IMG/VR virus record: IMGVR_UViG_3300017917_001562
Coordinates: 44,582 to 108,581 of that record
From: a virus
Length of the DNA stretch: 64,000 nt
Strand: one strand, 5' to 3'
Part shown: positions 86 to 39,965 of the stretch, one piece after another
How the letters are laid out: each line of letters begins with the position of its first letter
Numbering within the stretch: position 1 is the first letter of the stretch
Notes under the pieces: generated by a model
What the model was told of the DNA's origin: nothing
Database searches by the model: none
What the model saw: the letters and a program-made list of their open reading frames with translations, nothing else
Program-made: the position numbers and the translations under genes

Positions 86-382
86 TTAGCTTAAATTGTT
101 TTCCCAAGTATTCAATTTGTCCAAAATCAGCGCAAAATGACTGGCTTCGCCGGGAATTTCAAAAGCCACACACTGTTGCATAGCGATGTGTTTATTTTCT
201 GGATTTTCAACATAAGCATCTCCAGCAAAAAATCTTCCGTCGCAGTTTTCATTGACCCAGTCTGTAATTTTTTTAACATTGCATCTGAGATCAAATTGAA
301 CTTTAGTAAAATGTGGCGGGCAATGATCTAGCTGTCTAAGCCCAAACACATTTAAAGGATTAACTTCACCGTACTTTAACAT
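86..382 (-). CDS. hypothetical phage protein; possible distant member of the small LRW-type family
   Basis: 98-aa ORF with W-V-x-E-N core and C-terminal 'VAFEIPGEASHFAL', similar to the array proteins. Confidence 0.6.
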   Translation of the reverse strand: MLKYGEVNPLNVFGLRQLDHCPPHFTKVQFDLRCNVKKITDWVNENCDGRFFAGDAYVENPENKHIAMQQCVAFEIPGEASHFALILDKLNTWENNLS

Positions 383-1230: not shown

Positions 1231-1259
1231 ATTATATAGCCAAAACGGTTTTATGTCAA
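1231..1259 (-). promoter_or_regulatory. consensus sigma70 (early) promoter
   Basis: - strand TTGACA-17 nt-TATAAT directly upstream of 917..1213. Confidence 0.85.
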
Positions 1260-1261
1260 TG

Positions 1262-1549
1262 TTACATCCATTTTAATCTAAACCAATTGGCATCTTCTGG
1301 AGATTCAAAAGCTATTTTTACGCCTTGAATTTTATATTCACTTTGGCAATTTTCTTTTAACCAATCTCTTTTTTGTTGACATAAATTATCTGTGACCATA
1401 TGATTGGTAACATGAACAACATATCCGGACCCAAGAGCATTGTTTACCAATGTCCACCCCGATACTTCTACCCAAACACTAAAGTCTATTTCGTATTGAA
1501 CCTGCTCAGCTAGTTGATTTAGAATGTGTTCTTGTATATTATTGTTCAT
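1262..1549 (-). CDS. LRW-family small protein
   Basis: WLKEN core; ends FESPEDANWFRLKWM. Confidence 0.75.
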   Translation of the reverse strand: MNNNIQEHILNQLAEQVQYEIDFSVWVEVSGWTLVNNALGSGYVVHVTNHMVTDNLCQQKRDWLKENCQSEYKIQGVKIAFESPEDANWFRLKWM

Positions 1550-1551
1550 TG

Positions 1552-1773
1552 TTAACTCCATCTAAGACAAAAAGCTGTCAGTGTCGGTTTATCGGGCAAC
1601 ACCACAGTCATACCTTGGACCTTACTTTTATTTTGTTTACACCACACTTGTAGATCATCGTAGTGTATATTCCAGTATGCTATGTCTGACAGCACAATCA
1701 ACAATTCGCCGCCTGTTACTAGCGTATCAGGAATAATGAATCTTCGTCGGTGACCGTTGTCAAGTAAACTCAT
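1552..1773 (-). CDS. LRW-family small protein
   Basis: WCKQN core; ends TAFCLRWS. Confidence 0.75.
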   Translation of the reverse strand: MSLLDNGHRRRFIIPDTLVTGGELLIVLSDIAYWNIHYDDLQVWCKQNKSKVQGMTVVLPDKPTLTAFCLRWS

Positions 1774-2129
1774 CTTACTAAGTTTAACATGGTTTGATAT
1801 TGTTGCCAAAGATCTTGAAGTCCGGGATGTTGATGTCTAAGCCTAGTTTCTTCTTCTTGCTTATATACAATTTCTTGAATATCTCGCTTTAGGTCTACTG
1901 CATGTTGCTTTTCTTCCAACCATTGATCGTGTTCCATTAAAGCACGAAAACGATCTTCAGGCATGTGAATTTCTACACAAGTAAGATCCTCATATGGATT
2001 ATTGTTATAAATGTTTGGATCACTGGCCCATATTTTATAATCAACTCGTCTTACTCGTCTATGCATTTTTGTACTAGGCACTACATAAGCATCATATTTG
2101 TAACAAAACTCTGTAAAATCTTTTGTCAT
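1770..2129 (-). CDS. hypothetical phage protein (not LRW family)
   Basis: 119-aa ORF; ends HPGLQDLWQQYQTMLNL. Confidence 0.7.
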   Translation of the reverse strand: MTKDFTEFCYKYDAYVVPSTKMHRRVRRVDYKIWASDPNIYNNNPYEDLTCVEIHMPEDRFRALMEHDQWLEEKQHAVDLKRDIQEIVYKQEEETRLRHQHPGLQDLWQQYQTMLNLVR

Positions 2130-2130
2130 T

Positions 2131-2415
2131 TTAACTCCATTTTAATAACCATAAAGCTATATCGTCTTTATGTGTAAATCCCCACCATTCTTGTTGATTA
2201 TGAAAGTCGGAACTGTAAGACAGAATTTGGCCGCGGCAATGCAAATTACACCAAGTCCAGTATTCGTTGGAAAATTTAACAGGTTTAACACAAACAAACC
2301 ATTTACTGGGCTTGTGCGGTTTAACTTGTTCTGGCACCCAAAGTCCACTATCATCGTCACCAAGTCCTGGGCGAATATCGTTCCAAAATTCTTTGAACTG
2401 CTTTCGATTTATCAT
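2131..2415 (-). CDS. LRW-family small protein
   Basis: WC core; ends DDIALWLLKWS; start overlaps the upstream stop (ATGA). Confidence 0.75.
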   Translation of the reverse strand: MINRKQFKEFWNDIRPGLGDDDSGLWVPEQVKPHKPSKWFVCVKPVKFSNEYWTWCNLHCRGQILSYSSDFHNQQEWWGFTHKDDIALWLLKWS

Positions 2416-2624
2416 GACCACTTCAACAATGTTAACAAGGCTTTTTTCTCGTCTGCGAAATGCCAAGTAGTACCATAAGTGGGGCTCCTTAGATTCATAT
2501 CATATGTACGCCACCAGTCTTGTTTAAACTCACCTACATAAGTTTCTAACCACTCATTAAATGATACATCTGGTACTAATGAACGATGAAGACCCTTGAG
2601 TTGACTTTGATGTATTTTATTCAT
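2412..2624 (-). CDS. LRW-family small protein
   Basis: WLETYVG core; ends FADEKKALLTLLKWS. Confidence 0.75.
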   Translation of the reverse strand: MNKIHQSQLKGLHRSLVPDVSFNEWLETYVGEFKQDWWRTYDMNLRSPTYGTTWHFADEKKALLTLLKWS

Positions 2625-2626
2625 AC

Positions 2627-2857
2627 TTACGCCCATCGCAGTTTCCATATTACATATAGTTCTGGAGTCAAGTATAAAGCAGTATTACTGTCGGGATCAT
2701 CTCGCATTGGTCGCCATAAATCAGGATCTTGCACTCGGATCCACTCAAACATACCCTCGGGGGTCCTAAATCCTTCAAAGCTTGGATCATCAAAACAATA
2801 TGTTTTGTATCCGTGTGTAAAAAGTTCGTAACGACCGTTGCGTGGCAAATGACTCAT
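2627..2857 (-). CDS. LRW-family small protein
   Basis: ends YVIWKLRWA. Confidence 0.75.
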   Translation of the reverse strand: MSHLPRNGRYELFTHGYKTYCFDDPSFEGFRTPEGMFEWIRVQDPDLWRPMRDDPDSNTALYLTPELYVIWKLRWA

Positions 2858-3066
2858 CGGTTTCCTTTTAAAATAAACCACACAGCATCCTGCTCACGCT
2901 CAAACCACACTGTTCGACTACCGTAGTAGAGATAGAACTTACCAGGCGAATCCATTAACTGCAATTCACGCTTGAGTTGGGCATAGTTCCAATTTAGGTT
3001 GATTGTGCGTAGAACAGGATGCCAGTGCTGTTGCCGAACCTTTTTATCTTTGTTCCAATATTTCAT
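2854..3066 (-). CDS. LRW-family small protein (variant end)
   Basis: ends WFEREQDAVWFILKGNR. Confidence 0.75.
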   Translation of the reverse strand: MKYWNKDKKVRQQHWHPVLRTINLNWNYAQLKRELQLMDSPGKFYLYYGSRTVWFEREQDAVWFILKGNR

Positions 3067-3290
3067 GACCACCTTAATATAAACCAACTCATATCTTTAC
3101 GAGCATCCGGATAATCTAAAAAATAAAAATTAATTAAATCGTGTGTAATAGTATTACCATCACTGTGATATTGATTAGTAATGTAATGTGGACAGTTTTT
3201 CTTTGCCCATTGAATAGCACTATACAAATCAAGTTTACTACGGTCTACTGTTATGTAGTTATCAGTAATCTTCATATGCCAGTTGTCCAT
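3063..3290 (-). CDS. LRW-family small protein
   Basis: WAKKNC core; ends DMSWFILRWS. Confidence 0.75.
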   Translation of the reverse strand: MDNWHMKITDNYITVDRSKLDLYSAIQWAKKNCPHYITNQYHSDGNTITHDLINFYFLDYPDARKDMSWFILRWS

Positions 3291-3502
3291 CAACTCCACC
3301 TTAACAAAAATGCTGTATAATCTTCTTCATGCTCAAATACCGCAGTAACAAACTTGTTGTCTTTGTCCTCGACCATTTTGCAGCCAAACTCCTGTAACCA
3401 TTTTTTTCGGCTTTCTTCTAGTCCCAACGACTGAACACCAAGTGTTTCACGCCACGCACGACGAAACATTGAATGATGCTTTTTTAAATCTACTTCAATC
3501 AT
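3290..3502 (-). CDS. LRW-family small protein
   Basis: ends FEHEEDYTAFLLRWS. Confidence 0.75.
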   Translation of the reverse strand: MIEVDLKKHHSMFRRAWRETLGVQSLGLEESRKKWLQEFGCKMVEDKDNKFVTAVFEHEEDYTAFLLRWS

Positions 3503-3558
3503 GACCACCTCAATGCTAGCATTGTAGCATGATTTGCATATTTTCGTCTAACAAATTG

Positions 3559-3639
3559 ATAAATAAAAATGCGAGTCGCGATGCGTCAACATCCACCCGC
3601 CCTAACAGTTGAAAAGGAACTATCAGCATGAATATTTAT
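3559..3639 (+). promoter_or_regulatory. structured leader of the GIY-YIG gene (TAAATA, bulged hairpin, RBS-occluding hairpin, opposing TAAATA)
   Basis: same architecture with compensatory stem changes at 37259-37336. Confidence 0.65.
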
Positions 3640-4002
3640 TCCCCGGCACGACCCCCATCTGGGTATTATGTTTACGCATATATAAGATCAAAAGATTCGA
3701 AAACAGGTAAAGCAGGGACTCCGTATTACATTGGTAAAGGCAAGGGCAATCGAGCCACTCGACGTCACGGAAAAAACCCTATTCCAGATTTTGATTTCAT
3801 AGCAATATGTGAAGAAAATTTAACTGAAATTGGTGCATTAGCGATTGAACGATTCCTTATACGTGTTTGGGGGAGAAAAGATATCGGTACCGGAATTTTG
3901 TTAAACAGAACAGACGGCGGGGATGGGACATCGGGTAGATCAGCAGAGTCAATCTGCACCCAAACTGCGCCACCAAGGTCTACCCATCTTGGATCATTAT
4001 GA
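3628..4002 (+). CDS. GIY-YIG homing endonuclease, truncated after the catalytic domain
   Basis: YVYAY...YYIGKG...R...E...[10 protein letters not shown] motifs; the last ~20 aa are antisense of the interrupted gene. Confidence 0.8.
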
Positions 4003-4150
4003 TCTACAATTAAAGGGCCCACAGGCCACCTTACTTTGATAACAACACCAGGAACAAACCTCCACCAAAGTTTTTGCCAAATGTTTAATCCGCAAGGCAA
4101 ATATCTGCCAGACGGCAATTGAAATAAACTTTTAATTTCCCACTTAGCCA

Positions 4151-4552
4151 TTATGAATATTTCAATGCTATCATTACGGCATCTTGCTCATTGTTAGTTG
4201 CTACAAACACTTTATCCTCACCGCCTAGTTCGTTTACTGTCCATTCCCAATCAGTAGAAGGCTCACACATAACACGATGAAACTCCCAAACAGCATTTTC
4301 ACCTAAAGCACGAGCAGGCCAAAAATAATGTTTTGTATCTTCTCGCACGGTCCACCCAAACGGTTGTTCTAAGTTAAAAAACTTGTTAGGATCAACGATA
4401 ACAATATGTTTAAAATTTCTAAAAATATCTTTGATACGAGTAGCACGGACATTAACGGTTTGTTCATACCATGCCTTATACTCACGCTCTGCTTTTGTAT
4501 AACCAGTTGTGCGAGTAAGATACCAATCTTTGATATTGTCGAATAAAATCAT
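4151..4552 (-). CDS. LRW-family protein (longer variant)
   Basis: ends NNEQDAVMIALKYS. Confidence 0.75.
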   Translation of the reverse strand: MILFDNIKDWYLTRTTGYTKAEREYKAWYEQTVNVRATRIKDIFRNFKHIVIVDPNKFFNLEQPFGWTVREDTKHYFWPARALGENAVWEFHRVMCEPSTDWEWTVNELGGEDKVFVATNNEQDAVMIALKYS

Positions 4553-4555
4553 GGT

Positions 4556-4795
4556 TTATTCTGCTAATACTTCAAACAGTTCAGCATACTGTGTTTCGGG
4601 TTCATCAACGAATCCAGTATAGACCCATACTCTGCGACAATAAACTTTTTTAAGCCACACCCAACGGTTGTTAATAGTTTTATGCGGCAACAACACAAAT
4701 GTTTCAACCCAGTCGTGTTCTACCGCGGTTATGTCGCCTATGTTTGGGATAAACATTGCTCCTCTAACTATTTCTTTAAATAGGGAAAAACTCAT
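4556..4795 (-). CDS. hypothetical phage protein (not LRW family)
   Basis: W...F.LLP.KT...WVWLKKVY pattern, loosely like 16283..16540. Confidence 0.65.
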   Translation of the reverse strand: MSFSLFKEIVRGAMFIPNIGDITAVEHDWVETFVLLPHKTINNRWVWLKKVYCRRVWVYTGFVDEPETQYAELFEVLAE

Positions 4796-5013
4796 GCCCA
4801 CCTTAACGCTAATAAAATGTAAATTTTTTCATGAACATCAAATACATTATAGTTGATATGCCATTTTTCGTCAATGTTTTGAAACCATTGTTTATCTTCC
4901 TGCTCACAGAAAGATGTTCTTAACCAAATACTAACTTCTTTTTTACAAGATATAGTATACCAAGATTCATTATTAACTATAGCCTTAGTCCTTACTTTGA
5001 AGTTAGATTTCAT
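4792..5013 (-). CDS. LRW-family small protein
   Basis: ends YILLALRWA. Confidence 0.75.
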   Translation of the reverse strand: MKSNFKVRTKAIVNNESWYTISCKKEVSIWLRTSFCEQEDKQWFQNIDEKWHINYNVFDVHEKIYILLALRWA

Positions 5014-5258
5014 ACCCACCTCAACGCAAACATAGTATATTTTTTCTCATCTACCACTGCAACCTGCACAACTTCGTATCCGTGCCTACCATATATATCT
5101 TGTTTAGGACATAGATCTAATCTGAGCCCGGCTGTTTGTTCAATATGATACTTAAACCCAAGCATACGGTCCTCTCCAGAACTGGGCCAATCTGGGTCAT
5201 ATTCCATATAACATTTGTTTAGCAAACGATTTACGGATTTTGTATCTATAAATCTCAT
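5010..5258 (-). CDS. LRW-family small protein
   Basis: ends VDEKKYTMFALRWV. Confidence 0.75.
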   Translation of the reverse strand: MRFIDTKSVNRLLNKCYMEYDPDWPSSGEDRMLGFKYHIEQTAGLRLDLCPKQDIYGRHGYEVVQVAVVDEKKYTMFALRWV

Positions 5259-5467
5259 GAGCTCCACCTCAATGCAAACATAGTTGCATCCTTGCTATTG
5301 CGGAAGTAATAATCCACACCCTTCATTGAGGGCACTCGATTCCAGCGACCTTTAAACGGGCCCATGTTTTCGCCTAGCCATTCCTCAATCTTGTAATGCC
5401 CGGCGTGATCCATGGGCATAGAGATAGGAATCTTTGCTGGCCAAATTTCTTTCTTTAGTTGTCTCAT
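5255..5467 (-). CDS. LRW-family small protein
   Basis: WLGENMG core; ends FRNSKDATMFALRWSS. Confidence 0.75.
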   Translation of the reverse strand: MRQLKKEIWPAKIPISMPMDHAGHYKIEEWLGENMGPFKGRWNRVPSMKGVDYYFRNSKDATMFALRWSS

Positions 5468-5754
5468 GACCACCTCAACTCTAAGAATGTTACCATTTCC
5501 GGAGGAACTAAGAATACACTTTCAAACCATAGGTACCATGTGAACTTTTCTCGTGAGAAATGTTCGTTCATCCACACAACCTCTGGACCTAATACATCTA
5601 CGCAAACATAATCTTCATATCCCATGGGAGGGGCACGGCCAGTATCAACACGCGGCGGAATCAGGAATGTTGATTCATATTCGGCCAACCATTTAGCGTG
5701 AGCGGCTAGTTCGTTATCCGGTATCAGAGCAACACTTTGGAAATTTACTTTCAC
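5464..5754 (-). CDS. LRW-family small protein
   Basis: GTG start in a GTGA overlap; ends VTFLELRWS. Confidence 0.75.
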   Translation of the reverse strand: MKVNFQSVALIPDNELAAHAKWLAEYESTFLIPPRVDTGRAPPMGYEDYVCVDVLGPEVVWMNEHFSREKFTWYLWFESVFLVPPEMVTFLELRWS

Positions 5755-5984
5755 GACCACCTCAACATAAACCAAGTATACGCTTGTTCATCATAAAAGT
5801 CAATATACCTATCACCGTAACCGCTTAACGGATTTATGGGTTTGGCTATCCAAAAGTTTGCCGACCAGTCCATGAGAGCATGATTGATTTCTTCCTCGCC
5901 AAAACTATCTGGTAAAAAGTTATACCACCATCTTGGGATTTCAGATGGATGGCGATCTTCTTCAAATATCTTTATTCTAATCAT
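5751..5984 (-). CDS. LRW-family small protein
   Basis: ends FYDEQAYTWFMLRWS. Confidence 0.75.
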   Translation of the reverse strand: MIRIKIFEEDRHPSEIPRWWYNFLPDSFGEEEINHALMDWSANFWIAKPINPLSGYGDRYIDFYDEQAYTWFMLRWS

Positions 5985-6190
5985 GACCACCTCAACACAA
6001 ACATCATATAATCATCTACACGGCGAAATTCAAATACACCTTCACTAACATAACGCCAGTTCTGTTCCTTGAATCGTCCTCTACACCATTCCATCGCAGG
6101 CAACCAGCCCCAGTGCTCATACTCCTTGTGTGCAGGTTGAGGCACACTTGCAATAATCCAACTGTTGATAGGATTTCTTGGCAATTTCAT
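5981..6190 (-). CDS. LRW-family small protein
   Basis: EWC core; ends FRRVDDYMMFVLRWS. Confidence 0.75.
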   Translation of the reverse strand: MKLPRNPINSWIIASVPQPAHKEYEHWGWLPAMEWCRGRFKEQNWRYVSEGVFEFRRVDDYMMFVLRWS

Positions 6191-6441
6191 GACCACCTCA
6201 GAATAAACATACTAGCGTCTTTTTCTTTTTCAAACATCCAGATGCTACCTCGACCTTGATGGTTACCTTGTAAGTTTTCTCTGCACCATTTTTTGATTTC
6301 GTATATCTGCGTCTCGTGCATCCTTGCGGGCCACTTTATCTCAACCTTTGTATAGCCTAGTTTAATCATCATGTCGCACATGATTTCCCAGTCTGTTTCT
6401 TCCTGGAGGGTTTTTGCAAGGTCTTGTTTTATTATTGTCAT
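6187..6441 (-). CDS. LRW-family small protein
   Basis: WCREN core; ends FEKEKDASMFILRWS; 'ETDWEI' resembles 'EIDFSV' of 1262..1549. Confidence 0.75.
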   Translation of the reverse strand: MTIIKQDLAKTLQEETDWEIMCDMMIKLGYTKVEIKWPARMHETQIYEIKKWCRENLQGNHQGRGSIWMFEKEKDASMFILRWS

Positions 6442-6659
6442 GACCACCTCAACATAAACAAAGTAGCATGTGCGGGATCAGAAAACCACATTACATATCC
6501 AGAGCCGGGTTCTAGTCGCCAGTAGTGTTCGCTAGCTGGTTTTCCATATTGACAGTTATTAGGACTACCAAAAGTTTTTAAACACCATGCCCACCAAACA
6601 GGCAGGCCTTGTTGATTATATACATGTCTATGTTTCATGGGTACAATTACAATATTCAT
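6438..6659 (-). CDS. LRW-family small protein
   Basis: WCLKTFG core; ends FSDPAHATLFMLRWS. Confidence 0.75.
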   Translation of the reverse strand: MNIVIVPMKHRHVYNQQGLPVWWAWCLKTFGSPNNCQYGKPASEHYWRLEPGSGYVMWFSDPAHATLFMLRWS

Positions 6660-6901
6660 GACCACCTCAACGCAAATAACATAGCCTTTTTTTCGTCTAC
6701 GATAGAGATCATAGTATCACCTAACCTTGCGCTATACACTCCCCACTCATCGCCCGCTTCAGGCTCAATATCAATGCCGTCAGGCCAACTATTTTTTAAC
6801 CAACGGCCACCGGGTCCTACATTGTTGTATAACCAATGTTCTAACTCTACAAACTGTATCCGGTGTTTGCTCATAATGGTAGTAGCATCAAAGTTAATCA
6901 T
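6656..6901 (-). CDS. LRW-family small protein
   Basis: WLYNNVG core; ends DEKKAMLFALRWS. Confidence 0.75.
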   Translation of the reverse strand: MINFDATTIMSKHRIQFVELEHWLYNNVGPGGRWLKNSWPDGIDIEPEAGDEWGVYSARLGDTMISIVDEKKAMLFALRWS

Positions 6902-7146
6902 GACCACCTCAGCGTTGTAAGCATCATGTCTTGCTCAAATTCAAAATAAAATCGGCCGGTTGATTCACAAAAACTATATCGGCCATGGCTGGGATAATTG
7001 TTACACCAGTTTACAATAGCTGCTTCTTTAACGAGCCATTCTAAAGTACCAGTATCGTAACTATCGAACTCTTCCTTATTCCAAAAGTTAGTAGAGTCTA
7101 CAACATATTTGAAATTTTCTATGTCTAAGTTGGCTATTTTCTTCAC
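6898..7146 (-). CDS. LRW-family small protein
   Basis: GTG start; ends FEFEQDMMLTTLRWS. Confidence 0.75.
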   Translation of the reverse strand: MKKIANLDIENFKYVVDSTNFWNKEEFDSYDTGTLEWLVKEAAIVNWCNNYPSHGRYSFCESTGRFYFEFEQDMMLTTLRWS

Positions 7147-7355
7147 ACCCACCTCAACAGTGCAAACATTCTATCTTTTTCATTTGTAATATACCACAAG
7201 TCAACACCATTAAGTGTGCCCTGGTATTCTGTTTCTATAGAATTTTTTTCACACCACTTATGAAAGTTTATTCTTTGCTGTGAGCTAACAGTAAAGCCCC
7301 GCGGATCACCTACTAATTTTACTCTGCCCTTTTCTGCAAAAACTTTAGTGGTCAT
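7143..7355 (-). CDS. LRW-family small protein
   Basis: WCEKN core; ends NEKDRMFALLRWV. Confidence 0.75.
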   Translation of the reverse strand: MTTKVFAEKGRVKLVGDPRGFTVSSQQRINFHKWCEKNSIETEYQGTLNGVDLWYITNEKDRMFALLRWV

Positions 7356-7555
7356 GCCCACCTCAGTGCAAACCACTCTTTGTTTTCTCTAACTTGAAAT
7401 ATGTATCCGTTAGAGCCTGAACTTAGAAGAAAGTATTCTACTTTGTTTTCGCGCATCCAACCGTAGATGTCAAGCCACTCCTGAAATGTGCGAACAAGGT
7501 AAGTAGGGTAACCTGCCCAACCTGGGTAGCTAGTAGATTCGACTTTCATATTCAT
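7352..7555 (-). CDS. LRW-family small protein
   Basis: WMREN core; ends EWFALRWA. Confidence 0.75.
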   Translation of the reverse strand: MNMKVESTSYPGWAGYPTYLVRTFQEWLDIYGWMRENKVEYFLLSSGSNGYIFQVRENKEWFALRWA

Positions 7556-7562
7556 TGTGTTA

Positions 7563-7901
7563 TCAATCATGAAAATCGTAATCGTAGCAGTGTCTAATTT
7601 CGTGTCCTAAATTTGAAGTGCTGGTGTTGGTACCTGTAATTACAGTACACTGATCACCTCGCCAAACAGCACAACCAACAATTCTATTTTTACCAAATCT
7701 ACCATTGGTGCTTTTATCACAGATTTGTTGCAGCTCTTGGTCAGACACTTGACGCCAAGTAATAGTTCTTACTCTTGTTTGTGATTTAGCAGTACTGATG
7801 TGTTCGGCGTTGTATTCCCATGCCTTAACGGGGTTGACAGGTTGAGCACTACAACCAGATACTGCTGCAACAATCGCAAAAACTAAAGACATTTTTTTCA
7901 T
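7563..7901 (-). CDS. lipoprotein with HExxH zinc-peptidase-like motif
   Basis: signal peptide with lipobox VSGC; LGHEIRHC near the C-terminus. Confidence 0.7.
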   Translation of the reverse strand: MKKMSLVFAIVAAVSGCSAQPVNPVKAWEYNAEHISTAKSQTRVRTITWRQVSDQELQQICDKSTNGRFGKNRIVGCAVWRGDQCTVITGTNTSTSNLGHEIRHCYDYDFHD

Positions 7902-7902
7902 G

Positions 7903-8127
7903 TTAATTCCACCTTAACAAAAACATTGTCAAATCTTTTTGATTTTTAAATTCAAACATATCGTAGGCAATCCTGTAACCACAATGATTTTCCCTGCACC
8001 ATTCTACCATTTCAGCTATAGGATAGCCTAAATAATGACCTTCTTGATCAAGTATAAATTCATCCACCGAAATTTTTACAGCAAGCCTAAGCCTTGGATC
8101 TGGTTCAATGGCGTAGGCTTTGCTCAT
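7903..8127 (-). CDS. LRW-family small protein
   Basis: EWCREN core; ends FKNQKDLTMFLLRWN. Confidence 0.75.
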   Translation of the reverse strand: MSKAYAIEPDPRLRLAVKISVDEFILDQEGHYLGYPIAEMVEWCRENHCGYRIAYDMFEFKNQKDLTMFLLRWN

Positions 8128-9404
8128 TATGCTTTGGCCAATTCCTTGGCTCGTTCATAAATTGCCCAAACACCAAAGGGAGGTTCTGCTTGCTCGTTGC
8201 CTTTGATAATGAATACAGTATCGCAGTATTCGCTGTCACCCCACTCACCAAAAGGCATACCGTCAGTGAACATGATAAACTTCTTAGGTTGAATATCATT
8301 TTCCTTCATGTATTCCCAATTAGCCATAAAGTCAGTACCACCACCACCTTGGGGCTCATAGGTAAGAATGTCCTCTAGTGATTCTGAACTGTAAACTTGG
8401 TGATTATACACTGCGGTGTCAAAACTCCACACTTGAATCTTGTACTCGTCATAGGCTTCCATAATGCCTTTGATCTCAGCCATAAAAGCCTTGATGTCTT
8501 CCTCGCCAATAGAACCCGAAGTGTCAATGGCAATACAAACATCAATCTGTTGACCCGGGATCATACCAGGCATAACAGCATCCAAGTGCCAGCTACGGCG
8601 TGAAGGGCGCAACCAAGTAAAGTCGTTTTTAACGGTGCTTTGGATTTGTTGTTCCAACAGCTCACGCCAGTTAACTACAGGCCTAGTCAAGTCTTTGATC
8701 AGACGCTTAACACCTGACGGCAAATTGCTGGCGCCTGTGGCCTGTGCGGCCTGTAGCAGTGCTTCGCGGATTTCGTCTTTGATGGCCTGTCGTTCTTCTT
8801 TGCTGAGACGGGGACGACCTTTGCCTTCTTTCTCGTCACCATCTTCGTCGCTACTGCCGTTGTCACCATCACCGTCCAAGTGCTCGTCTAACAGTTGATC
8901 CATCAAATCGCTGATGTCAATTTTTTCTGCATTTTCATAAAGGTCGTCGTAGACTTCTTCAGCACTCCAACCTTTGTATTTGACATCATACAGGCAAGGG
9001 GTAATTTTGTCACCAATCCGTTGCTCAATCAAATCACTGTTAACACAATAGTCAGCGGCACAATTAAACAAACGGCGATCGCGGTCGCCATTACGACCCA
9101 TATGGTCATAGACATTGTGCAGAACTTCGTGGCCAAACAAGAACTCAAGTTCTTTGGGTTTCAGTTTATTAACGAACTCAGTGTTGTAATAAAATTTACG
9201 ACCATCGGTTGCAGCAGTACCAAGCCAACTGTCTGCATTAACCAATTGCAGTCTGGTAGCAAGGTTACCAAAGAATGGTGCCTTAAGCAAGAGACCGATA
9301 CGAGCAGTAGTCAATTTTTCACGCACTGCACGATCCAAAGCAGGATCGGTATTGTCAGTGAGACGACCTGCGATGTCTTTTTGTTTACTGTCTGATGTAG
9401 CCAT
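8127..9404 (-). CDS. metallopeptidase-like + VWA domain protein (DUF2201-type)
   Basis: TAATDG, HEVLH (HExxH), MIDAS DTSGS, GGGTDF, FTDG. Confidence 0.9.
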   Translation of the reverse strand: MATSDSKQKDIAGRLTDNTDPALDRAVREKLTTARIGLLLKAPFFGNLATRLQLVNADSWLGTAATDGRKFYYNTEFVNKLKPKELEFLFGHEVLHNVYDHMGRNGDRDRRLFNCAADYCVNSDLIEQRIGDKITPCLYDVKYKGWSAEEVYDDLYENAEKIDISDLMDQLLDEHLDGDGDNGSSDEDGDEKEGKGRPRLSKEERQAIKDEIREALLQAAQATGASNLPSGVKRLIKDLTRPVVNWRELLEQQIQSTVKNDFTWLRPSRRSWHLDAVMPGMIPGQQIDVCIAIDTSGSIGEEDIKAFMAEIKGIMEAYDEYKIQVWSFDTAVYNHQVYSSESLEDILTYEPQGGGGTDFMANWEYMKENDIQPKKFIMFTDGMPFGEWGDSEYCDTVFIIKGNEQAEPPFGVWAIYERAKELAKA

Positions 9405-9429
9405 TTATCTGCTCCTTGTTAATGTATAT

Positions 9430-9458
9430 ATTATAACACACTTGCGAATTTTTGTCAT
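9430..9458 (-). promoter_or_regulatory. sigma70-type promoter
   Basis: ATGACA-17 nt-TATAAT upstream of the VWA gene; AAGGAG RBS. Confidence 0.6.
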
Positions 9459-9471
9459 TAATACCAAAGTA

Positions 9472-9765
9472 TTACAACCATTTAAGTGTAAACAGTTCTA
9501 GTTCTTGATTTGTTTTAAGATAAATTAATGGAGTATCGTATTTAATATCCTCTAATCTATAAGACCAAGATTGGTTCCTAGTAAATTTTGCATGACTTAA
9601 ATGAAGGTTGAGTTGGACACCCATACCCCATATTTCATTGCACCAATGACACCATTCTACAAATTTAGGAATTCTAGAGTCAAAGGGTTCGTGCAGTTCA
9701 ATCCTGTATGCAAAATGCCCATATCCTCCATGACGGCGATCTAATTTTACAACCTTGGCGGGCAT
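9472..9765 (-). CDS. LRW-family small protein (outlier copy)
   Basis: WCNEIWG core; ends ELELFTLKWL. Confidence 0.7.
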   Translation of the reverse strand: MPAKVVKLDRRHGGYGHFAYRIELHEPFDSRIPKFVEWCHWCNEIWGMGVQLNLHLSHAKFTRNQSWSYRLEDIKYDTPLIYLKTNQELELFTLKWL

Positions 9766-9784
9766 GATTGTTACTAGTAATTGG

Positions 9785-9828
9785 GGACTTACGGGAGAAA
9801 GGAGTTGGAAAGCCCTGCCCCGTAGTCC
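9785..9828 (-). other. GC-rich stem-loop after the AAA gene (terminator or processing site)
   Basis: GGAC-TACGGG ... CCCGTA-A-GTCC arms. Confidence 0.5.
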
Positions 9829-10938
9829 TTACTTGCTGTTGGCGGCTACAATGTATTTGCCAAATCGCTTATGGAACTCGTCGAAATGTTTCAACTTGCC
9901 AGGAATGAAAGGCAGATTGTAGGTAGTCAGTGCAACACGAGCACCCATAACAGTCAATTCGGTAGTGAAATTGTCCATCATGTAACGGAAGAAGAAATCT
10001 GCCATACTGTTAAATTTCTCGTCAGGCTTGCCGTTATTTTTTAGCACATGATCCTGAAGTTCATAGCAGAGGTTCACAGTTAGTGAGTACATGGCTGAAA
10101 TTTCTTTGACCTTAAGATCAGTGACTTTGCCGTCAAGAATGTCAATAGGCTTAGGCAACTGACCTGCAACCTTGCGGTGCGCCATAAACTTAACTGCAAC
10201 ACCTTCGCCCACAGCACCTGAAATCAAGTCAGTAAGTTCGCTGTCAGTGCAGTCATTGTCCTCCAACAGTTCACTGACAAAAGTCCACGAACGAGGAGTA
10301 GCGAACGCACGGCTTGAACTACGGGGGTCAAAGTCGTAAAGGTCTTGTTTAGCAAAACCAATATAACCAATCACATCTGAACTGATGCGGTTAATGGTAG
10401 CCCATTGCTCCCACGATTCGTGATCAACTCGCATCTCCAAGTGAACGAAGCGGTTAGCCAACGGAGCAGGCATACGATAAGTAACGCCTTTATCAGTTTC
10501 ACGGTTACCTGCGGCAATCACAACCACATTGTCAGGCAGTGTATACTTGCCAATACGGCGGTTCAAAACCAGCTGATAAGCTGCGGCCTGGATGCTGGGT
10601 GCAGCACTGTTCATTTCATCAAGGAACAAAACAACCACAGGATACTGTTTGGCCAGTTCTTCACTGGGCAAGTCGATTGGGGGAGCCCAATCCATCAAAC
10701 CATTGTCTTTGTTGTAATAAGGAATACCACGCAGGTCAGTGGGTTCCATCTGTGCCAAACGAAGGTCAATCATAAGACCGCCCATTTCTTCAGCAATACT
10801 AGCAACCAGTTCGGACTTGCCGATGCCTGGAGGACCCCACAGGAACAGGGGTCGTTTTTTCTTAAAACACTTGGTAATGGCACGACGAGCGGTCAGTGCG
10901 GTTACAGTGCGATTTTCAGTAATTGAGTCTTTCGACAT
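9829..10938 (-). CDS. MoxR-like AAA+ ATPase
   Basis: Walker A GPPGIGKS, Walker B LFLDE, AAGN, NRF; adjacent to the VWA partner. Confidence 0.9.
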   Translation of the reverse strand: MSKDSITENRTVTALTARRAITKCFKKKRPLFLWGPPGIGKSELVASIAEEMGGLMIDLRLAQMEPTDLRGIPYYNKDNGLMDWAPPIDLPSEELAKQYPVVVLFLDEMNSAAPSIQAAAYQLVLNRRIGKYTLPDNVVVIAAGNRETDKGVTYRMPAPLANRFVHLEMRVDHESWEQWATINRISSDVIGYIGFAKQDLYDFDPRSSSRAFATPRSWTFVSELLEDNDCTDSELTDLISGAVGEGVAVKFMAHRKVAGQLPKPIDILDGKVTDLKVKEISAMYSLTVNLCYELQDHVLKNNGKPDEKFNSMADFFFRYMMDNFTTELTVMGARVALTTYNLPFIPGKLKHFDEFHKRFGKYIVAANSK

Positions 10939-11000
10939 CGTCTTCTCCTTTGCTTTAAAAAGTATATTATACCTAATCTGCGAATTATTGTCTGTAGTTA

Positions 11001-11273
11001 TTATACCACAGTCAACATATTAGCAGGAACTCGCCACAGACCTGCCACAGTGCGAACAGTGACATATTTCTGTGCAATTTTGACCACTGTACCAGTGTAA
11101 TCACGGCCTTGTTTGGAATTGTGAAAGTTAACATTGTCGCCCAACATCAAACTGGCTTTGGTTCGCTTGGTCAGCTGAGCCCTAGCATATTTTAAAGCTT
11201 CTGTAATTTTACTAAGGTCTTCGTTGGTAAAATTACCGGCCACCAATTCACGGACGATATCGTTTGTGTTCAT
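11001..11273 (-). CDS. small early protein, SH3/KOW-like C-terminus
   Basis: GDNVNF...GTVVKI.QKYVTV...WRVPANML; own promoter. Confidence 0.7.
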   Translation of the reverse strand: MNTNDIVRELVAGNFTNEDLSKITEALKYARAQLTKRTKASLMLGDNVNFHNSKQGRDYTGTVVKIAQKYVTVRTVAGLWRVPANMLTVV

Positions 11274-11281
11274 GTTAGTTC

Positions 11282-11339
11282 AACTCCTGTTTTGTTACTG
11301 TATGCCATTATTATAGCAAAATTGGGAATTTCGGACAAG
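11282..11339 (-). promoter_or_regulatory. early promoter/leader repeat, copy 1
   Basis: TTGTCC-17 nt-TATAAT with TGn extension, then ATGGCATA..TAACAAAACAGGAGTT; near-identical to 11976-12032. Confidence 0.75.
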
Positions 11340-11352
11340 TACTACTTGAGTA

Positions 11353-11778
11353 TTACTTTTCTAGGGCGTAGGGTTTGTCCCAACGGCCAATGTTGACATC
11401 AATATACCAACCCACATCAAAATAGTCAGTCATTGCATCGCTATTGTCGTGATTGCCGTTATTCATTGCAGGAATAACTTCCTTCAAAAAGTTAAGGGCC
11501 CGGCCACTGAAATGCTCTTTGTACCAATAAGGATTAACATCCAGGCTACGGTTCTTGCGGATGTAGTCAATTTGATCTTGACCCATCTTTTTACCAGACA
11601 GACCATTGGTGTCAGTTTCAATGAAATTTTCAATGAAGTCAATGCGACCCTGCTTGATGTTCAGAACCAAGGTGCTGTGATTGCGAACTGCAATACTGGC
11701 CTTGACACCATACTTCTTGCAGATTGCTTTGATGGCAGGTGCCAGCATAGCCTTCTTTTCTTGCGACATATAAGCCAT
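11353..11778 (-). CDS. conserved phage early protein
   Basis: MAYMSQE... DNSDAMTDYFDVGWY pattern; AGGAG RBS. Confidence 0.75.
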   Translation of the reverse strand: MAYMSQEKKAMLAPAIKAICKKYGVKASIAVRNHSTLVLNIKQGRIDFIENFIETDTNGLSGKKMGQDQIDYIRKNRSLDVNPYWYKEHFSGRALNFLKEVIPAMNNGNHDNSDAMTDYFDVGWYIDVNIGRWDKPYALEK

Positions 11779-11791
11779 TTTTATCTCCTAA

Positions 11792-11971
11792 TTAAACAGC
11801 AAGCGCGAACAGTTTCGCCATATTAGAAAACACCACACGATAAGCACGGACTTCACGATCCGTCAAGTCTTCTATGCTGTCTTGCATTTCTTCAAGAGTT
11901 TCCAGCAGGCCCGGAAGAGCCCAGTTTTGCTGATAATCTTGGACAATTTCCATGGCTTGTTCAAAGTTCAT
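11792..11971 (-). CDS. 59-aa hypothetical protein (below the ORF-track cutoff)
   Basis: MNFEQAMEIVQDYQQNWALPG...KLFALAV*; promoter and AGGAG RBS upstream. Confidence 0.7.
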   Translation of the reverse strand: MNFEQAMEIVQDYQQNWALPGLLETLEEMQDSIEDLTDREVRAYRVVFSNMAKLFALAV

Positions 11972-11975
11972 TTCA

Positions 11976-12032
11976 AACTCCTGTTTTGTTAACCTATGCC
12001 ATAATTATAGCAAATTCAGGAATTTCGAGCAA
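11976..12032 (-). promoter_or_regulatory. early promoter/leader repeat, copy 2
   Basis: TTGCTC-17 nt-TATAAT with TGn extension, ATGGCATA..TAACAAAACAGGAGTT. Confidence 0.75.
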
Positions 12033-12048
12033 CCAAAAAAATGTATAC

Positions 12049-12420
12049 TTAGGTATTACTTTCTAAGTTGTCTAAGTAAGTGGCAAGGTCTCCGCCCATT
12101 AATTGCAACCAACTAGCATCCTGCTCATCTAAGACAATAAATTTTGCAGTACGGCTCCAATAGTAATATGGACCAGGAAACAATCTTTCAAGTTGCAGTA
12201 AGTTCTTGTTGGTCAAGGGCTTGGGCAATTCAAAAGAGAAAATTTCTAATTTTAATTCTTTGACTACAAACTGATAACCAGTCATGCTTAATCTAATGCT
12301 GGCATCGTCAGTATGGTTGTGCCACATAAATTTCAAATCAGCTGTGGGCCTGCCAACTTGATGTGCAAATATTTTTGTAAGTTGGCTTTGTGTAAATCGC
12401 TTAAGGGAAGATTTGATCAC
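12049..12420 (-). CDS. hypothetical phage protein
   Basis: 123-aa ORF; C-terminal 'DEQDASWLQL' echoes the LRW-family helix. Confidence 0.65.
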   Translation of the reverse strand: MIKSSLKRFTQSQLTKIFAHQVGRPTADLKFMWHNHTDDASIRLSMTGYQFVVKELKLEIFSFELPKPLTNKNLLQLERLFPGPYYYWSRTAKFIVLDEQDASWLQLMGGDLATYLDNLESNT

Positions 12421-12688
12421 CGCTTTTCAACAGTACTACAGTGAACTTGTCGGTCTTGAACAGTGTGTTTAACTTTTTGCAAAGATTAATAGCATGTCCT
12501 GGATTGCTGAAACTGGTCTTTTTATATTTAGGTCCAGGATAGTTGACCAACATATTGTGGCTTTTTAAATTGATTGGTTGATTATCGTAGAACACTGCCC
12601 AGATGCCTTCACTGCTGAGAATCTGTTCTGTTTTGTAAGTCTGTTTGTCGACATAATCGATTAAGACTGTGGGCTTGGGTCTACTCAT
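12401..12688 (-). CDS. conserved hypothetical phage protein
   Basis: MSRPKP...YKKTSFSNPGHA; TAAATA upstream. Confidence 0.75.
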   Translation of the reverse strand: MSRPKPTVLIDYVDKQTYKTEQILSSEGIWAVFYDNQPINLKSHNMLVNYPGPKYKKTSFSNPGHAINLCKKLNTLFKTDKFTVVLLKSGDQIFP

Positions 12689-12730
12689 AATATTTGATCT
12701 TACTGTATATTTATGCCTTAATATACGCAG

Positions 12731-12952
12731 TTAAAAAGTACCACCATCCATGTTTACAGTAACATCACTACTTTGACCAGTGGTGGATAATTTCCTAGTC
12801 AAAACTGCACAAAAATTAAGTATTTCAAACAATTCTGCTTGAATATCTCGTGCTTCTTGAGCCGAAAGGATCAGTTGTTTACTGTTGCTTTGATTCATGA
12901 CTTTTACTTTGTCATTGAACATTTTTAAGTGCAGACTAAGATTATTCTCCAT
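12731..12952 (-). CDS. hypothetical phage protein
   Basis: ORF from MENNLS; ends MDGGTF. Confidence 0.65.
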   Translation of the reverse strand: MENNLSLHLKMFNDKVKVMNQSNSKQLILSAQEARDIQAELFEILNFCAVLTRKLSTTGQSSDVTVNMDGGTF

Positions 12953-13418
12953 TTGCTGCCTTAAGTGCTTCACTCATTTCTTCTTTGGTCATAAAAGGAC
13001 CTTGAAATGGATATCTGTTTAATGTGATTAATTTTGGGCAAAAACTTTTGACCCAACCATTGTTGAATTTAATTATGTAATGGCCAGCACAATAATAGCT
13101 TTTGCTTTTACTGGTCTTAGTATAAACACCAAACTGATGTTTAACATCCCATAGAATATTCCAAGGCTTATTGGTTACTGGATATCCATATACTAAATGT
13201 TCAGGCGCCGGCTTAGTTTTGGCTTTTGAATCTTTGTCAAAAGTAATATTGTATTCTTTAGACAATAACTTAATTGTTGGAAATTTAGTTCTGCTGTTAG
13301 TGTCTGCGTAGACAAACCCCCCATTGTCTACAGCTTGGATCGTAGCAACTTGATTGCCATGATCTTCTACTACCCAGAATTTATTCTTTAGAATCGGTTT
13401 GGCTATCAGTTCCGTCAT
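12942..13418 (-). CDS. conserved hypothetical phage protein
   Basis: ORF from MTELIAKP; SFCPKLITL.RYPFQGPF. Confidence 0.7.
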   Translation of the reverse strand: MTELIAKPILKNKFWVVEDHGNQVATIQAVDNGGFVYADTNSRTKFPTIKLLSKEYNITFDKDSKAKTKPAPEHLVYGYPVTNKPWNILWDVKHQFGVYTKTSKSKSYYCAGHYIIKFNNGWVKSFCPKLITLNRYPFQGPFMTKEEMSEALKAANGE

Positions 13419-13575
13419 TGTTTTTTTGACCTTTCGTATATTGCTCATTGAGCCACTCGTGATACCGTTCGTAGTATTCTGCAGCATCATACATTGGCAT
13501 TTGTTTATACCACTCAAAATATTCATCGCAGTGGCTTTGCCACATTTCATATAACCAGTGTTGAAATTTTAACAT
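13381..13575 (-). CDS. hypothetical protein
   Basis: 64-aa aromatic-rich ORF in operon context. Confidence 0.5.
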   Translation of the reverse strand: MLKFQHWLYEMWQSHCDEYFEWYKQMPMYDAAEYYERYHEWLNEQYTKGQKNNDGTDSQTDSKE

Positions 13576-13585
13576 AATAATTCTG

Positions 13586-13828
13586 TTATTCGTTTTGTAA
13601 ACTTAATTTTTCCCACATAAGTTCTTTATCATAGACATACGCCACAGGTTTTAGCCAACCTTGGTTAATGCATTCAGCAATAATTTCTTTGTAGTTACTA
13701 GGACACCCAGATGAAATTTCAAACCCTGCTCGGGGAGTTATGGTATATCCATTGGTAATCATAAAGTCGTCGTCGCGATGACGAACTGTACGAATACAAG
13801 CAGTGAATTTTTCGTTATTAATAAACAT
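13586..13828 (-). CDS. hypothetical phage protein
   Basis: 80-aa ORF in operon context. Confidence 0.65.
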   Translation of the reverse strand: MFINNEKFTACIRTVRHRDDDFMITNGYTITPRAGFEISSGCPSNYKEIIAECINQGWLKPVAYVYDKELMWEKLSLQNE

Positions 13829-14051
13829 CGAATTTTTGTTTAATTTGTTTTACAATTCGCTCTTTGACACCGCGAGCAAAGTCAGCTTGATAAGTAGTCA
13901 TGACCATGTCTTGCAACTGTGCATTTTCAACAAGGCCTATACAGTATTTAACAATCTCTCGTGCAAAATGTTCTTGCTGTTCGGGATTGATGCCAGGATA
14001 ATGGCTTCCGCCTGCTTGTAATTGAAATTCTTTAAGTAGTTCTTTGTTCAT
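13818..14051 (-). CDS. small paralogous 'QAG...FA..IV..C' family protein
   Basis: shares pattern with 63674..63877 and 63396..63677. Confidence 0.65.
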   Translation of the reverse strand: MNKELLKEFQLQAGGSHYPGINPEQQEHFAREIVKYCIGLVENAQLQDMVMTTYQADFARGVKERIVKQIKQKFDVY

Positions 14052-14054
14052 AGT

Positions 14055-15043: not shown

Positions 15044-15694
15044 TTATTCATTTGTAGTCAATATGCTTTTAACTTTTGGTAAAATGAAATCTGCCCAAGC
15101 TAGATGTGCCTCTGCACCATAATGATAATATTTTGGATTAGCAGGTTTAAATCCTGCATTTTCCAACCAAAAATAATAGGTAAAATTTTTGTCGTAAGGG
15201 TCGATGTAACTTTTACCCCAATCATATTTAGATTTATTTTGTCTTATTGTATAAAAGAAATGACTATAGCAGTTAAAAAACAAGTGAGGAATATGTTTTA
15301 TTTTTTGATGAAATTCCCAAATTTTATCGTGTGCTGTAAATTCATTGAGCCATTGTTGTTCAGGAACACTTTGGTCAATTACCCATTGTTTATACTTGTA
15401 TTGTAATTCTAAAGGAACAGTATCATACCCACTAGCAGTAATATTGTAAGCCTCATCGTTCCAATACCAAGTTTCTCGCTCCCAAGTGCTCCACCCAATG
15501 ATTAGAAAATCTGGTGTGTTGGATTCTAAATAACTTAAAGTTCTTTGTATAATGCTGTCATTGCTACAGCCTTGAACAGCTGCACACACATATTCATAAC
15601 CTAATGCATCTGCTATGTGTTTACCATAGGCAAAATTTGGACCACCGGCATCATGCCCTGCACTGTGGCTGTCACCGTCTACATATAGTTTCAT
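15044..15694 (-). CDS. SGNH/GDSL-like hydrolase
   Basis: GDSHSAG, G.SN, HYGAEAH. Confidence 0.75.
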   Translation of the reverse strand: MKLYVDGDSHSAGHDAGGPNFAYGKHIADALGYEYVCAAVQGCSNDSIIQRTLSYLESNTPDFLIIGWSTWERETWYWNDEAYNITASGYDTVPLELQYKYKQWVIDQSVPEQQWLNEFTAHDKIWEFHQKIKHIPHLFFNCYSHFFYTIRQNKSKYDWGKSYIDPYDKNFTYYFWLENAGFKPANPKYYHYGAEAHLAWADFILPKVKSILTTNE

Positions 15695-15921
15695 ACATAT
15701 TTCAGTGTTATAAATGAAGCAAGACTTTCGTCGTCTAGACTTATATTAATATTGCCGCTATAAAAGCCACGATCAATGGCCCAATGCTTGCCACCTACCC
15801 TAGAGTGTAAATAGTAAGTTCTTACACCAACATTTTGTTCTAAATAACATTGAACTTCGCGTTCGTGCTTTGACGGAATAGTAAATGTTACTTTGAATTT
15901 TTGTTCAAGTACACTAGGCAT
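15691..15921 (-). CDS. LRW-family-like small protein (outlier copy)
   Basis: YLEQNVG core; ends DDESLASFITLKYV. Confidence 0.65.
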   Translation of the reverse strand: MPSVLEQKFKVTFTIPSKHEREVQCYLEQNVGVRTYYLHSRVGGKHWAIDRGFYSGNINISLDDESLASFITLKYV

Positions 15922-39536: not shown

Positions 39537-39965
39537 TTATTCTGCCTTTTTATTCTTGTCTTTTTCAGTTATGGGTCCGCCTGTGATCCAAGCTCTACAA
39601 CTTCTTGCACCTGCACATTTGAAGTGCAAAAAGTTACAATAACCAATGTCAGCAATATTTATGCTGGCATTAGCATCTATGTTTGGTTCATCACCTTTGA
39701 TACCATTGGCTATGCATTCGCGCATACTGTCGCTGACATCAAAGGCCGCACAGTTTGCACACTGCATGGTTTTTGCAATAGCTTCTGTAACTTTAAATCC
39801 TTTTGCAGCTTTTTTCCAATAGTCGCCGGGATTATCAGGGTTAGCAGGACCATAATTATATTCATCTATGGCCTTTTGTCTATTTTTAAGATTAATATCT
39901 ATGTTATGAGTAGCTACAGGACAATTCTTTGTAGCTGCTTCCATGATCTGTATATAATTACGCAT
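39537..39965 (-). CDS. Cys-rich hypothetical (probable virion) protein
   Basis: CANCAAF, GYC..LHFKC...RSC.AW. Confidence 0.7.

Follow-up and report, generated by a model that had tools for sequence, protein, structure and literature searches.

An array of paralogous phage mini-genes whose shared protein tail is also the gene junction

Why should some two dozen small viral genes, set one behind the other and alike in little else, end in the same few residues? The question is raised by a 64,000-nucleotide stretch of DNA (positions 44,582 to 108,581 of the 108.6-kb IMG/VR virus record IMGVR_UViG_3300017917_001562), hereafter the window, whose minus strand carries 26 small genes in tandem between positions 1262 and 8127. 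We call the genes LRW genes after the Leu-Arg-Trp of their common ending. Our best explanation overall, which we consider fairly probable, is an operon of paralogues in which the gene junction is itself coding, neighbouring genes are translationally coupled, single genes are exchanged as cassettes and the products, as a less certain last step, may act as early binders.

One family beneath the shared tail

The LRW array is real and far beyond chance, as two counts confirm. A pattern for open reading frames (ORFs) ending in [hydrophobic][RK][WY]x(0-2) picks out 22 on the minus strand of 1262-8154, plus two further ones at 9472 and 15691; outside these it fits a single unrelated ORF in the 64 kb, and no plus-strand ORF at all. 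Further, the 15-mer TTGAGGTGGTCATGA, allowing up to two mismatches, occurs 13 times where 0.12 occurrences are expected, always on the minus strand and between 2412 and 7366. Both counts bear out the tandem array of about 23 tail-sharing ORFs described in the initial annotation of this DNA. The 'GTG MVM' starts in the ORF list are artefacts, the true start being an ATG (twice a GTG) that overlaps the upstream stop.

These genes are shown to be about 23 old paralogues of one unnamed, virus-only family of mini-proteins. A profile of the 23 copies found 616 representative clusters (formed at 50% identity) with E <= 1e-3 among 1.84 billion proteins; nearly all are proteins of 52-200 residues with the domain at the very C-terminal end, and all are viral. 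The family consensus is W-C-x-E-N-C-x-G ... F-x-F-x-x-E-x-D-A-x-x-F-x-L-R-W-x, so that both motifs first read from the window, W-[CLM]-x-[EK]-N in the centre and F..E.DA..F.L[RK]W near the end, prove to be the consensus of a wider family, and W52 and W83 are invariant across 136 aligned sequences. A metagenome search with a family hidden Markov model (HMM), which the initial annotation had proposed, thus uncovered a large family, although four of the array genes lay beyond the HMM threshold.

A rival explanation holds that the tail arises only because a ribosome-binding site and an ATGA overlap are embedded in it, and that the small genes are otherwise unrelated ORFans. Evidence from within the window is thin and leaves room for this: pairwise BLAST of sequences trimmed of their last six residues gives weak matches, the best with E 3e-4 against a tiny database, leave-one-out profiles without the tail rank 8 of the 23 genes first among about 315 decoys and 11 of the 23 no better than decoys, and five genes share only the tail. 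Evidence from elsewhere argues otherwise. An HMM made from 128 non-window sequences and scanned against the 904 ORFs of the 108.6-kb record places 19 window genes at the top (E 2e-23 to 1.5e-3), namely 18 array genes and 86-382. When the tail is cut from model and targets alike, E <= 0.04 is still reached by 14 genes, and array or outlier genes make up all of the best 18 matches; the tail-less match is not kept for the genes starting at 5464, 5751, 5010, 4792 and 2627. With at least 14 genes matching the profile without its tail and a confident structural model, the earlier proposal that one small alpha/beta scaffold has been expanded is supported. The same profile finds no membership for three genes embedded in the array (7563-7901, 4556-4795 and 1770-2129).

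The family resembles nothing that has been named. Pfam and PHROGs, searched with 10 window and 10 foreign members, hold no family for the domain; Pfam run on all 136 aligned members returns only Gp23, on N-terminal extensions. No match below E 0.5 was obtained in the PDB by sequence profile, and none among GenBank phages by megablast of the array or by tblastn of three members with E up to 1. A peptide-pattern search of IMG/VR with a single protein gave no match, the family alignment being too variable for patterns, and matches in the ESM Atlas are solely to unnamed virus clusters. The initial annotation's statement that no characterised family carries this signature is upheld across the Pfam, PHROG, PDB and GenBank-phage searches, and we found no relevant description of such arrays in the literature.

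AlphaFold2, supplied with the 136-sequence alignment, models the product of 6187-6441 at a predicted local distance difference test (pLDDT) score of 85.5, with a long N-terminal helix followed by a strand (31-34), a helix (43-56), two strands (61-64 and 67-70) and a last helix (73-83). The middle helix holds W52-C-R-E-N, D75-A76 open the last helix, and F79, L81 and W83 lie within it, in helix blocks at pLDDT 88-94. The prediction for each protein is a variable N-terminus followed by a beta-alpha-beta-beta-alpha domain of 55 residues, whose last helix would have F-x-L-R-W as its buried end. Since F79, L81 and W83 sit inside that helix, the conserved positions would be core or capping residues and the tail would not be a free peptide. 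On this model, core and capping positions are conserved and the others vary.

The comparison of folds covers two modelled members, compared by element order. The second, 4792-5013, was modelled from its own 12 orthologues at pLDDT 87.6 and has the same order of elements, its last helix spanning residues 62-72. This subfamily is a candidate, not an established, branch of the main family: the hhalign probability between them is 77% with the tail and 2% without it, and the BFVD/Foldseek hit lists of the two models do not overlap. Foldseek finds no PDB entry at E <= 1e-3 for the 6187 model. VIA-align superposes this model on ACT, RRM, HPr and YajQ chains with Z 5.5-6.2 and a root-mean-square deviation of 1.9-2.4 A over 52-56 residues; the best Z values (6.2 for the first model, 5.7 for the second) fall in the range of common arrangements, with Z under 8, and the match at 6.2 ties with many unrelated folds. 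The likeness to ferredoxin-like, ACT, RRM and HPr split beta-alpha-beta domains is thus one of element order and size, whereas the LRW family has no sequence signal, final strand, or ligand or RNA-binding motifs in common with them. In BFVD the same fold occurs in uncharacterised proteins of uncultured phages, of Agrobacterium phage Atu_ph07 and of Burkholderia phage BcepSauron.

The gene junction and the exchange of single genes

At the DNA level, the gene junctions read TTG AGG TGG TCA TGA, and the ATG of the next gene lies within TC-ATG-A. The segment GAGGTGGTC can pair at nine of nine positions, one G-U counted, with GAUCACCUC, the 3' end of 16S ribosomal RNA of the E. coli type. The Shine-Dalgarno (SD) sequence so formed occupies the final codons of the gene upstream, 5-9 nt before the next start, and stop and start overlap at 19 of the 25 listed array junctions. 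This is the layout of translational coupling, by which ribosomes would pass from gene to gene.

The codons of the tail carry the imprint of this signal. AGG encodes the tail arginine in 15 of 17 tails. In the remainder of these genes it accounts for 13 of 74 arginines (18%), and in long window genes for 12 of 271. Whichever of S, A or V comes last, its codon is just NNA or NNG before TGA. Fixation at the nucleotide level is thus shown for AGG and for the last, NNA codon, a point that favours the by-product explanation, and the near-invariant tail, first taken for a protein tag, owes its invariance here largely to the SD sequence and the ATGA overlap. An SD of the form GAGGTG or AGGTGG precedes none of 30 other window genes, which have AAGGA(G) or no SD. 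Because other genes use a different type of SD, its flavour in the array is set by the Arg-Trp codons, not the reverse. As an aside, about half of the 30 genes checked have no recognisable SD before their first ATG, the remainder having AAGGA(G); genes of this kind may reflect the host, or their starts may be mis-set.

Copies that are not coupled to a following gene keep [RK]-W with other codons: AAA TGG ATG TAA at 1262, AAA TGG TTG TAA at 9472 and CGA TGG GCG TAA at 2627. Since Arg or Lys before Trp is kept where no gene follows, the tail is constrained twice, as protein and as mRNA signal. The pattern recurs in 364 members from 100 other loci that were not selected by the 15-mer. There the residue before W is R in 75% and K in 15%; 69% have an NTGA overlap and 12% an overlap of the TAATG type, or 81% together; and AGG makes up 62-94% of the Arg codons in coupled members and 39% where no start is near. 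In the uncoupled cases R or K still precedes W in 84%. Likewise, the cultured phage Atu_ph07 has eight dispersed, distinct ORFs with a family HMM E <= 0.01 that end in LRF, LRY or similar, often with a C-terminal extension, and show no coupling, which argues that the motif predates its use as an SD. With W52, F70, D75 and F79 conserved too, all upstream of the SD, we regard the by-product explanation as extremely unlikely.

The initial annotation had further suggested that the aromatic C-terminus is an exposed docking tag for one common partner. Such a tag would account for the retention of R/K-W without a following gene and for the fact that the protein ends one residue after W in 82% of the 364 members elsewhere. 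The structural models place the motif differently, as the predicted end of the last core helix, with F79, L81 and W83 in well-modelled helix in the first model and the corresponding end in helix 62-72 of the second. Further, distant copies extend past the motif, and the member at 2854-3066 has lost its RW and still scores. A docking tag is, in our view, quite improbable.

Overlapping genes coupled through ATGA or TAATG, with an SD in the upstream gene, are a known arrangement, and the LRW junctions share it (19 of 25 in the array, 81% of the members elsewhere). They differ from ordinary coupling in that the SD is written in two conserved structural residues, Arg-Trp being AGG TGG, and in that the signal recurs some 20 times in succession and is part of the family signature.

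The junction also appears to mark where genes are exchanged. It is found as an exact 15-mer in at least 119 IMG/VR loci, 101 of which include members of the family, 515 ORFs altogether with as many as 17 in one same-strand run, although loci picked by this 15-mer are a biased sample of arrays. Three DNA matches of at least 90% identity (90-93%) each consist of exactly one gene; their ends fall 0-20 nt from the gene borders, and on either side identity is lost inside the junction. One matching contig, L002 (14.6 kb), shares no other DNA with the entire 108.6-kb record. Gene order is shuffled relative to loci L110, L002 and L008: 17 listed genes, namely 86-382 and 16 from the array, have orthologues in L110, in an order that is permuted except for the blocks 4556-4151 and 2131-1770-1552. 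The non-members 4556-4795 and 1770-2129, with orthologues in 15 and 4 loci, travel with LRW arrays, and L110 retains 4556 beside 4151 and 1770 between 2131 and 1552. Copy number in five other records is 8, 13, 6, 20 and 17, the 8 copies belonging to the 338.5-kb, 97%-complete record behind locus L046 and the 20 to a 31-kb fragment. Array content does, then, differ between related phages, in copy number as in order, as had been anticipated. Because the exchange matches end at junctions, the junction of 15-25 bp may be the crossover site, and cassettes could be gained, lost and reordered through it without breaking expression.

Exchange of this kind resembles that at PeSL motifs of T4-type phages, in which an early promoter and a stem-loop together bring about the modular shuffling of hyperplastic regions (PMC2839356, PMC4122927). 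In both, small early ORFs in a variable region are bordered by a short conserved sequence, and insertions, deletions and replacements are bounded by this motif; the three blocks of at least 90% identity do end at junctions. In contrast to PeSL, the LRW junction has neither promoter nor stem-loop terminator; it is coding, carries SD, stop and start, and separates units that are mostly of one family. Shuffling at border motifs and coupling are themselves known, and the LRW junction is a variant in which the border motif is coding.

How old are the copies that move? The initial annotation called them hypervariable, a term that fits the arms-race scenario of a fast-evolving repertoire under diversifying selection with recent local duplications. 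Neighbours share a mean column identity of 15%, and copy number and order vary, as this scenario would have it. Against it, every paralogue has a closer orthologue elsewhere: best identity is 45-92% outside the array and at most 41%, over 39 residues, inside it, and no pair of neighbours looks recently duplicated. The ratio of nonsynonymous to synonymous substitution (dN/dS) in two close orthologue pairs is 0.15 (3063-3290) and 0.21 (5751-5984), although each value is based on only 17-19 differences; both pairs are under purifying selection. Closer orthologues elsewhere and low dN/dS indicate old conserved lineages, not hypervariable ones. Turnover affects the gene repertoire, not the sequences, and we consider the arms-race scenario improbable.

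The cassettes might instead be selfish or neutral mobile elements, spread by the junction repeat with no benefit to the phage. Single genes at 90-93% DNA identity between otherwise unmatched contigs would be expected from such elements, as might one broken copy beside an endonuclease fragment. Yet the proteins are under purifying selection, only one copy has a disrupted reading frame, and the family has been kept in 97%-complete jumbo genomes and across 616 clusters or more, all of which make selfish spread a distinctly improbable account.

The array gene by gene and its surroundings

The record is 31% complete by CheckV. Positions 8136-14792 of the window, which include a VWA/DUF2201 gene, a MoxR-type ATPase and a flap endonuclease, are syntenic with the 338.5-kb record behind L046 at 70-75% DNA identity, and by this synteny the window belongs to a jumbo phage. 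The array follows the DUF2201 metallopeptidase/VWA gene and the MoxR-type ATPase. A sigma-70-like promoter (9430..9458, minus strand; 11 of 12 positions plus TG, by consensus match only) stands before the VWA gene and the array and is the probable operon start; a second one, TTGACA-17-TATAAT with 12 of 12 positions (1231..1259, minus strand), stands directly after the array. We saw no convincing terminators within the array and no promoter or terminator pattern at the junctions. The array is probably one long, early operon, judging from this layout.

Unless stated otherwise, the genes lie on the minus strand, and E values are those of the HMM made from non-window sequences. The first array gene (7903..8127, 74 aa, ending FLLRWN; E 4.4e-12) is a family member 86% identical to its orthologue P0007; a TAATG overlap joins its ATG to the stop of the VWA/DUF2201 gene upstream. 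Next comes a non-member, the 112-aa lipoprotein-like gene 7563..7901, which has no Pfam match. Embedded in the array, it encodes a signal peptide ending in ..AAVSGC, with the lipoprotein Cys, and a HEIRH motif near the C-terminal end; its product could be a lipoprotein of the superinfection-exclusion type or a small metallopeptidase.

An unbroken series of members follows. It begins with 7352..7570 (72 aa, ending FALRWA; E 1.9e-7; orthologue in L046 at 66%), 7143..7355 (70 aa, LLRWV; E 1.4e-6) and 6898..7146 (82 aa, TLRWS; E 5.1e-7; P0006 at 89%), the last of which starts with the GTG of a GTGA overlap. It continues with 6656..6901 (81 aa, FALRWS; E 4.7e-7), 6438..6659 (73 aa, FMLRWS; E 1.3e-6; 68% in L110) and the modelled gene 6187..6441, an 84-aa copy that scores best of all (E 2.2e-23) and has homologues P0002-P0005. 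Behind it lie 5981..6190 (69 aa, FVLRWS; E 8.6e-9) and 5751..5984 (77 aa; E 5.9e-5), one of the single-gene cassettes, at 93% DNA identity with L002.

The 96-aa gene 5464..5754, with a GTG start and the ending LELRWS, is a tail-only candidate that the HMM does not detect with the tail and gives E 4.3 without it; an orthologue in L044 is 48% identical. It is followed by a clear member, 5255..5467 (70 aa, FALRWSS; E 3.9e-16), and by a weak one, 5010..5258 (82 aa; E 1e-3), a second cassette at 93% DNA identity with L008. Gene 4792..5013 (73 aa, LALRWA; E 0.2), with 13 orthologues, belongs to the tail-sharing subfamily modelled above. Next to it stand 4556..4795, a small non-member without HMM match, and 4151..4552, a doubtful member of 133 aa that ends in IALKYS, forms its own subfamily (E 1.1) and has orthologues in 14 loci.

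The array is interrupted once. Gene 3929..4151 is a broken member that retains the conserved N-terminal 75 or so residues of a subfamily of 125-150 aa; blastp matches this N-terminal part only, in more than 10 loci at 40-71% identity, and intact relatives end in ..TIAALRWS. At the break, on the plus strand, sits a GIY-YIG homing-endonuclease fragment recognised by its sequence motif (3628..4002), 124 aa long as against 233-234 aa in relatives, with homologues in L074, L016 and L072. The sequence MLALRWS-stop at 3500..3520, found by the 15-mer scan, is the orphan tail of the broken gene; its junction is intact and feeds the ATG of the next gene. Both the homing endonuclease and its target gene look decayed.

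Beyond the break lie the members 3290..3502 (70 aa, FLLRWS; E 3.1e-6) and 3063..3290 (75 aa; E 2.1e-6), the third single-gene cassette, at 91% DNA identity with L002. The member 2854..3066 (E 4.4e-6) ends in ..WFILKGNR and has the junction AAAGGAAACCGATGA, and 2627..2857 (76 aa, KLRWA with Arg as CGA and a TAA stop; E 1.1) is a further tail-only candidate, with orthologues of 53-62% identity in four loci. Two members end in LLKWS, 2412..2624 (70 aa; E 3.7e-5) and 2131..2415 (94 aa, AAA TGG AGT TAA; E 5.9e-5). The 119-aa non-member 1770..2129, whose neighbours are kept in L110, separates them from 1552..1773 (73 aa, CLRWS with AGA; E 1.5e-3) and from the last member, 1262..1549 (95 aa, RLKWM-TAA; E 6.3e-14), which has no coupled gene behind it.

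Outside the array, the two outliers named in the initial annotation do carry the tail pattern and score weakly: 9472..9765 (97 aa, FTLKWL; E 0.07) has orthologues in eight loci, including the syntenic L046, and 15691..15921 ends in ITLKYV (E 0.89). Scoring better than either is an extra member, 86..382 (98 aa, with a W-x-x-E-N core; E 1.6e-5 with the tail and 8e-5 without), in which a C-terminal extension replaces the RW end. Another weak copy lies 3.5 kb upstream of the window (E 0.027). Elsewhere on the minus strand of the window are a 1215-aa ORF with a sigma-70 region 4 domain (39958-43605; Pfam E 1.2e-17) and a 764-aa ClpB-type double AAA+ ATPase (52627-54921).

What the proteins may do

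One subfamily hints at a link to the phage particle. P0002-P0004, P0008 and P0028, which are relatives of 6187-6441, have an N-terminal extension of the form ..RKLKAKWT..EL...L.EEIDWEI.. that matches the Pfam major capsid protein family Gp23 (PF07068) in 11 of 136 aligned members, with P0028 scoring 29.2 bits against a cut-off of 24.4; PHROG 138 (major head protein) is matched as well. The extension has the look of a piece of capsid protein joined to the LRW domain, and the proteins might target the capsid of the phage itself or capsid assembly. However, only relatives of 6187-6441 carry this piece; the window copy is without most of it, and no window member matches PF07068, the matches being confined to the N-terminal extensions of 11 foreign relatives. 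No Gp23 match was found in this record, which is only 31% complete, and the control genomes of that search also gave none. Further, the array stands beside replication and early-type genes behind sigma-70-like promoters. A capsid role is very unlikely in our judgement.

SUKH-type immunity genes form rows of divergent small-fold paralogues in polymorphic toxin loci. The LRW array is similar in that its paralogues are very divergent and share a small fold whose core is conserved and whose surfaces vary. It differs in lying in a phage early operon with no toxin partner nearby, and no sequence or fold link was found: the SUKH signature has no Pfam match here, and no such chain is among the listed fold matches.

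We favour, tentatively and at somewhat less than even probability, a role for the family as binders of host or defence proteins. The proteins would be made early and would combine a stable core with diversified surfaces. This reading fits best with the conserved core, free surfaces and variable N-terminus, with the early-type position, and with purifying selection alongside turnover of the repertoire.

Several points weigh against our overall explanation, besides the small number of differences behind each dN/dS value and the way in which the 119 loci were picked. The genes at 5464, 4792, 2627 and 4151 and the broken 3929-4151 are linked to the family almost solely by the tail, with E values of 0.2-1.1 for 4792, 2627 and 4151, and the similarity of the 4792 subfamily collapses once the tail is removed. 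The role of the junction as crossover site is one that we infer from breakpoints. Promoter-like sites are not enriched (30, against 28.2 in shuffled sequence), and the single-operon reading is therefore likewise something that we infer. Lastly, many genes of this phage are without any SD, and the weight of an SD in its host is uncertain.

It is tempting to speculate that LRW mini-genes form a cassette pool shared between jumbo phages, integron-like but without an integrase, although we think this unlikely on present evidence. If it were true, single-gene modules would move by recombination at junctions that combine a helix end, a ribosome-binding site, a stop and the next start, and each phage would receive a shuffled set of small binders that disarm defences or seize host machines.

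Beyond such speculation, jumbo phages abound in small genes of no known role. The array puts about 20 genes of an unnamed family into 7 kb, and with at least 616 clusters in metagenomes, a role for one would annotate thousands of genes. Its junction places one 15-base sequence under three or four constraints and would offer a simple rule for the exchange of single genes, which could be swapped between phages like cassettes. If the proteins do bind defence or host factors, the arrays would constitute a ready-made collection of small, stable scaffolds whose surfaces nature has already varied.

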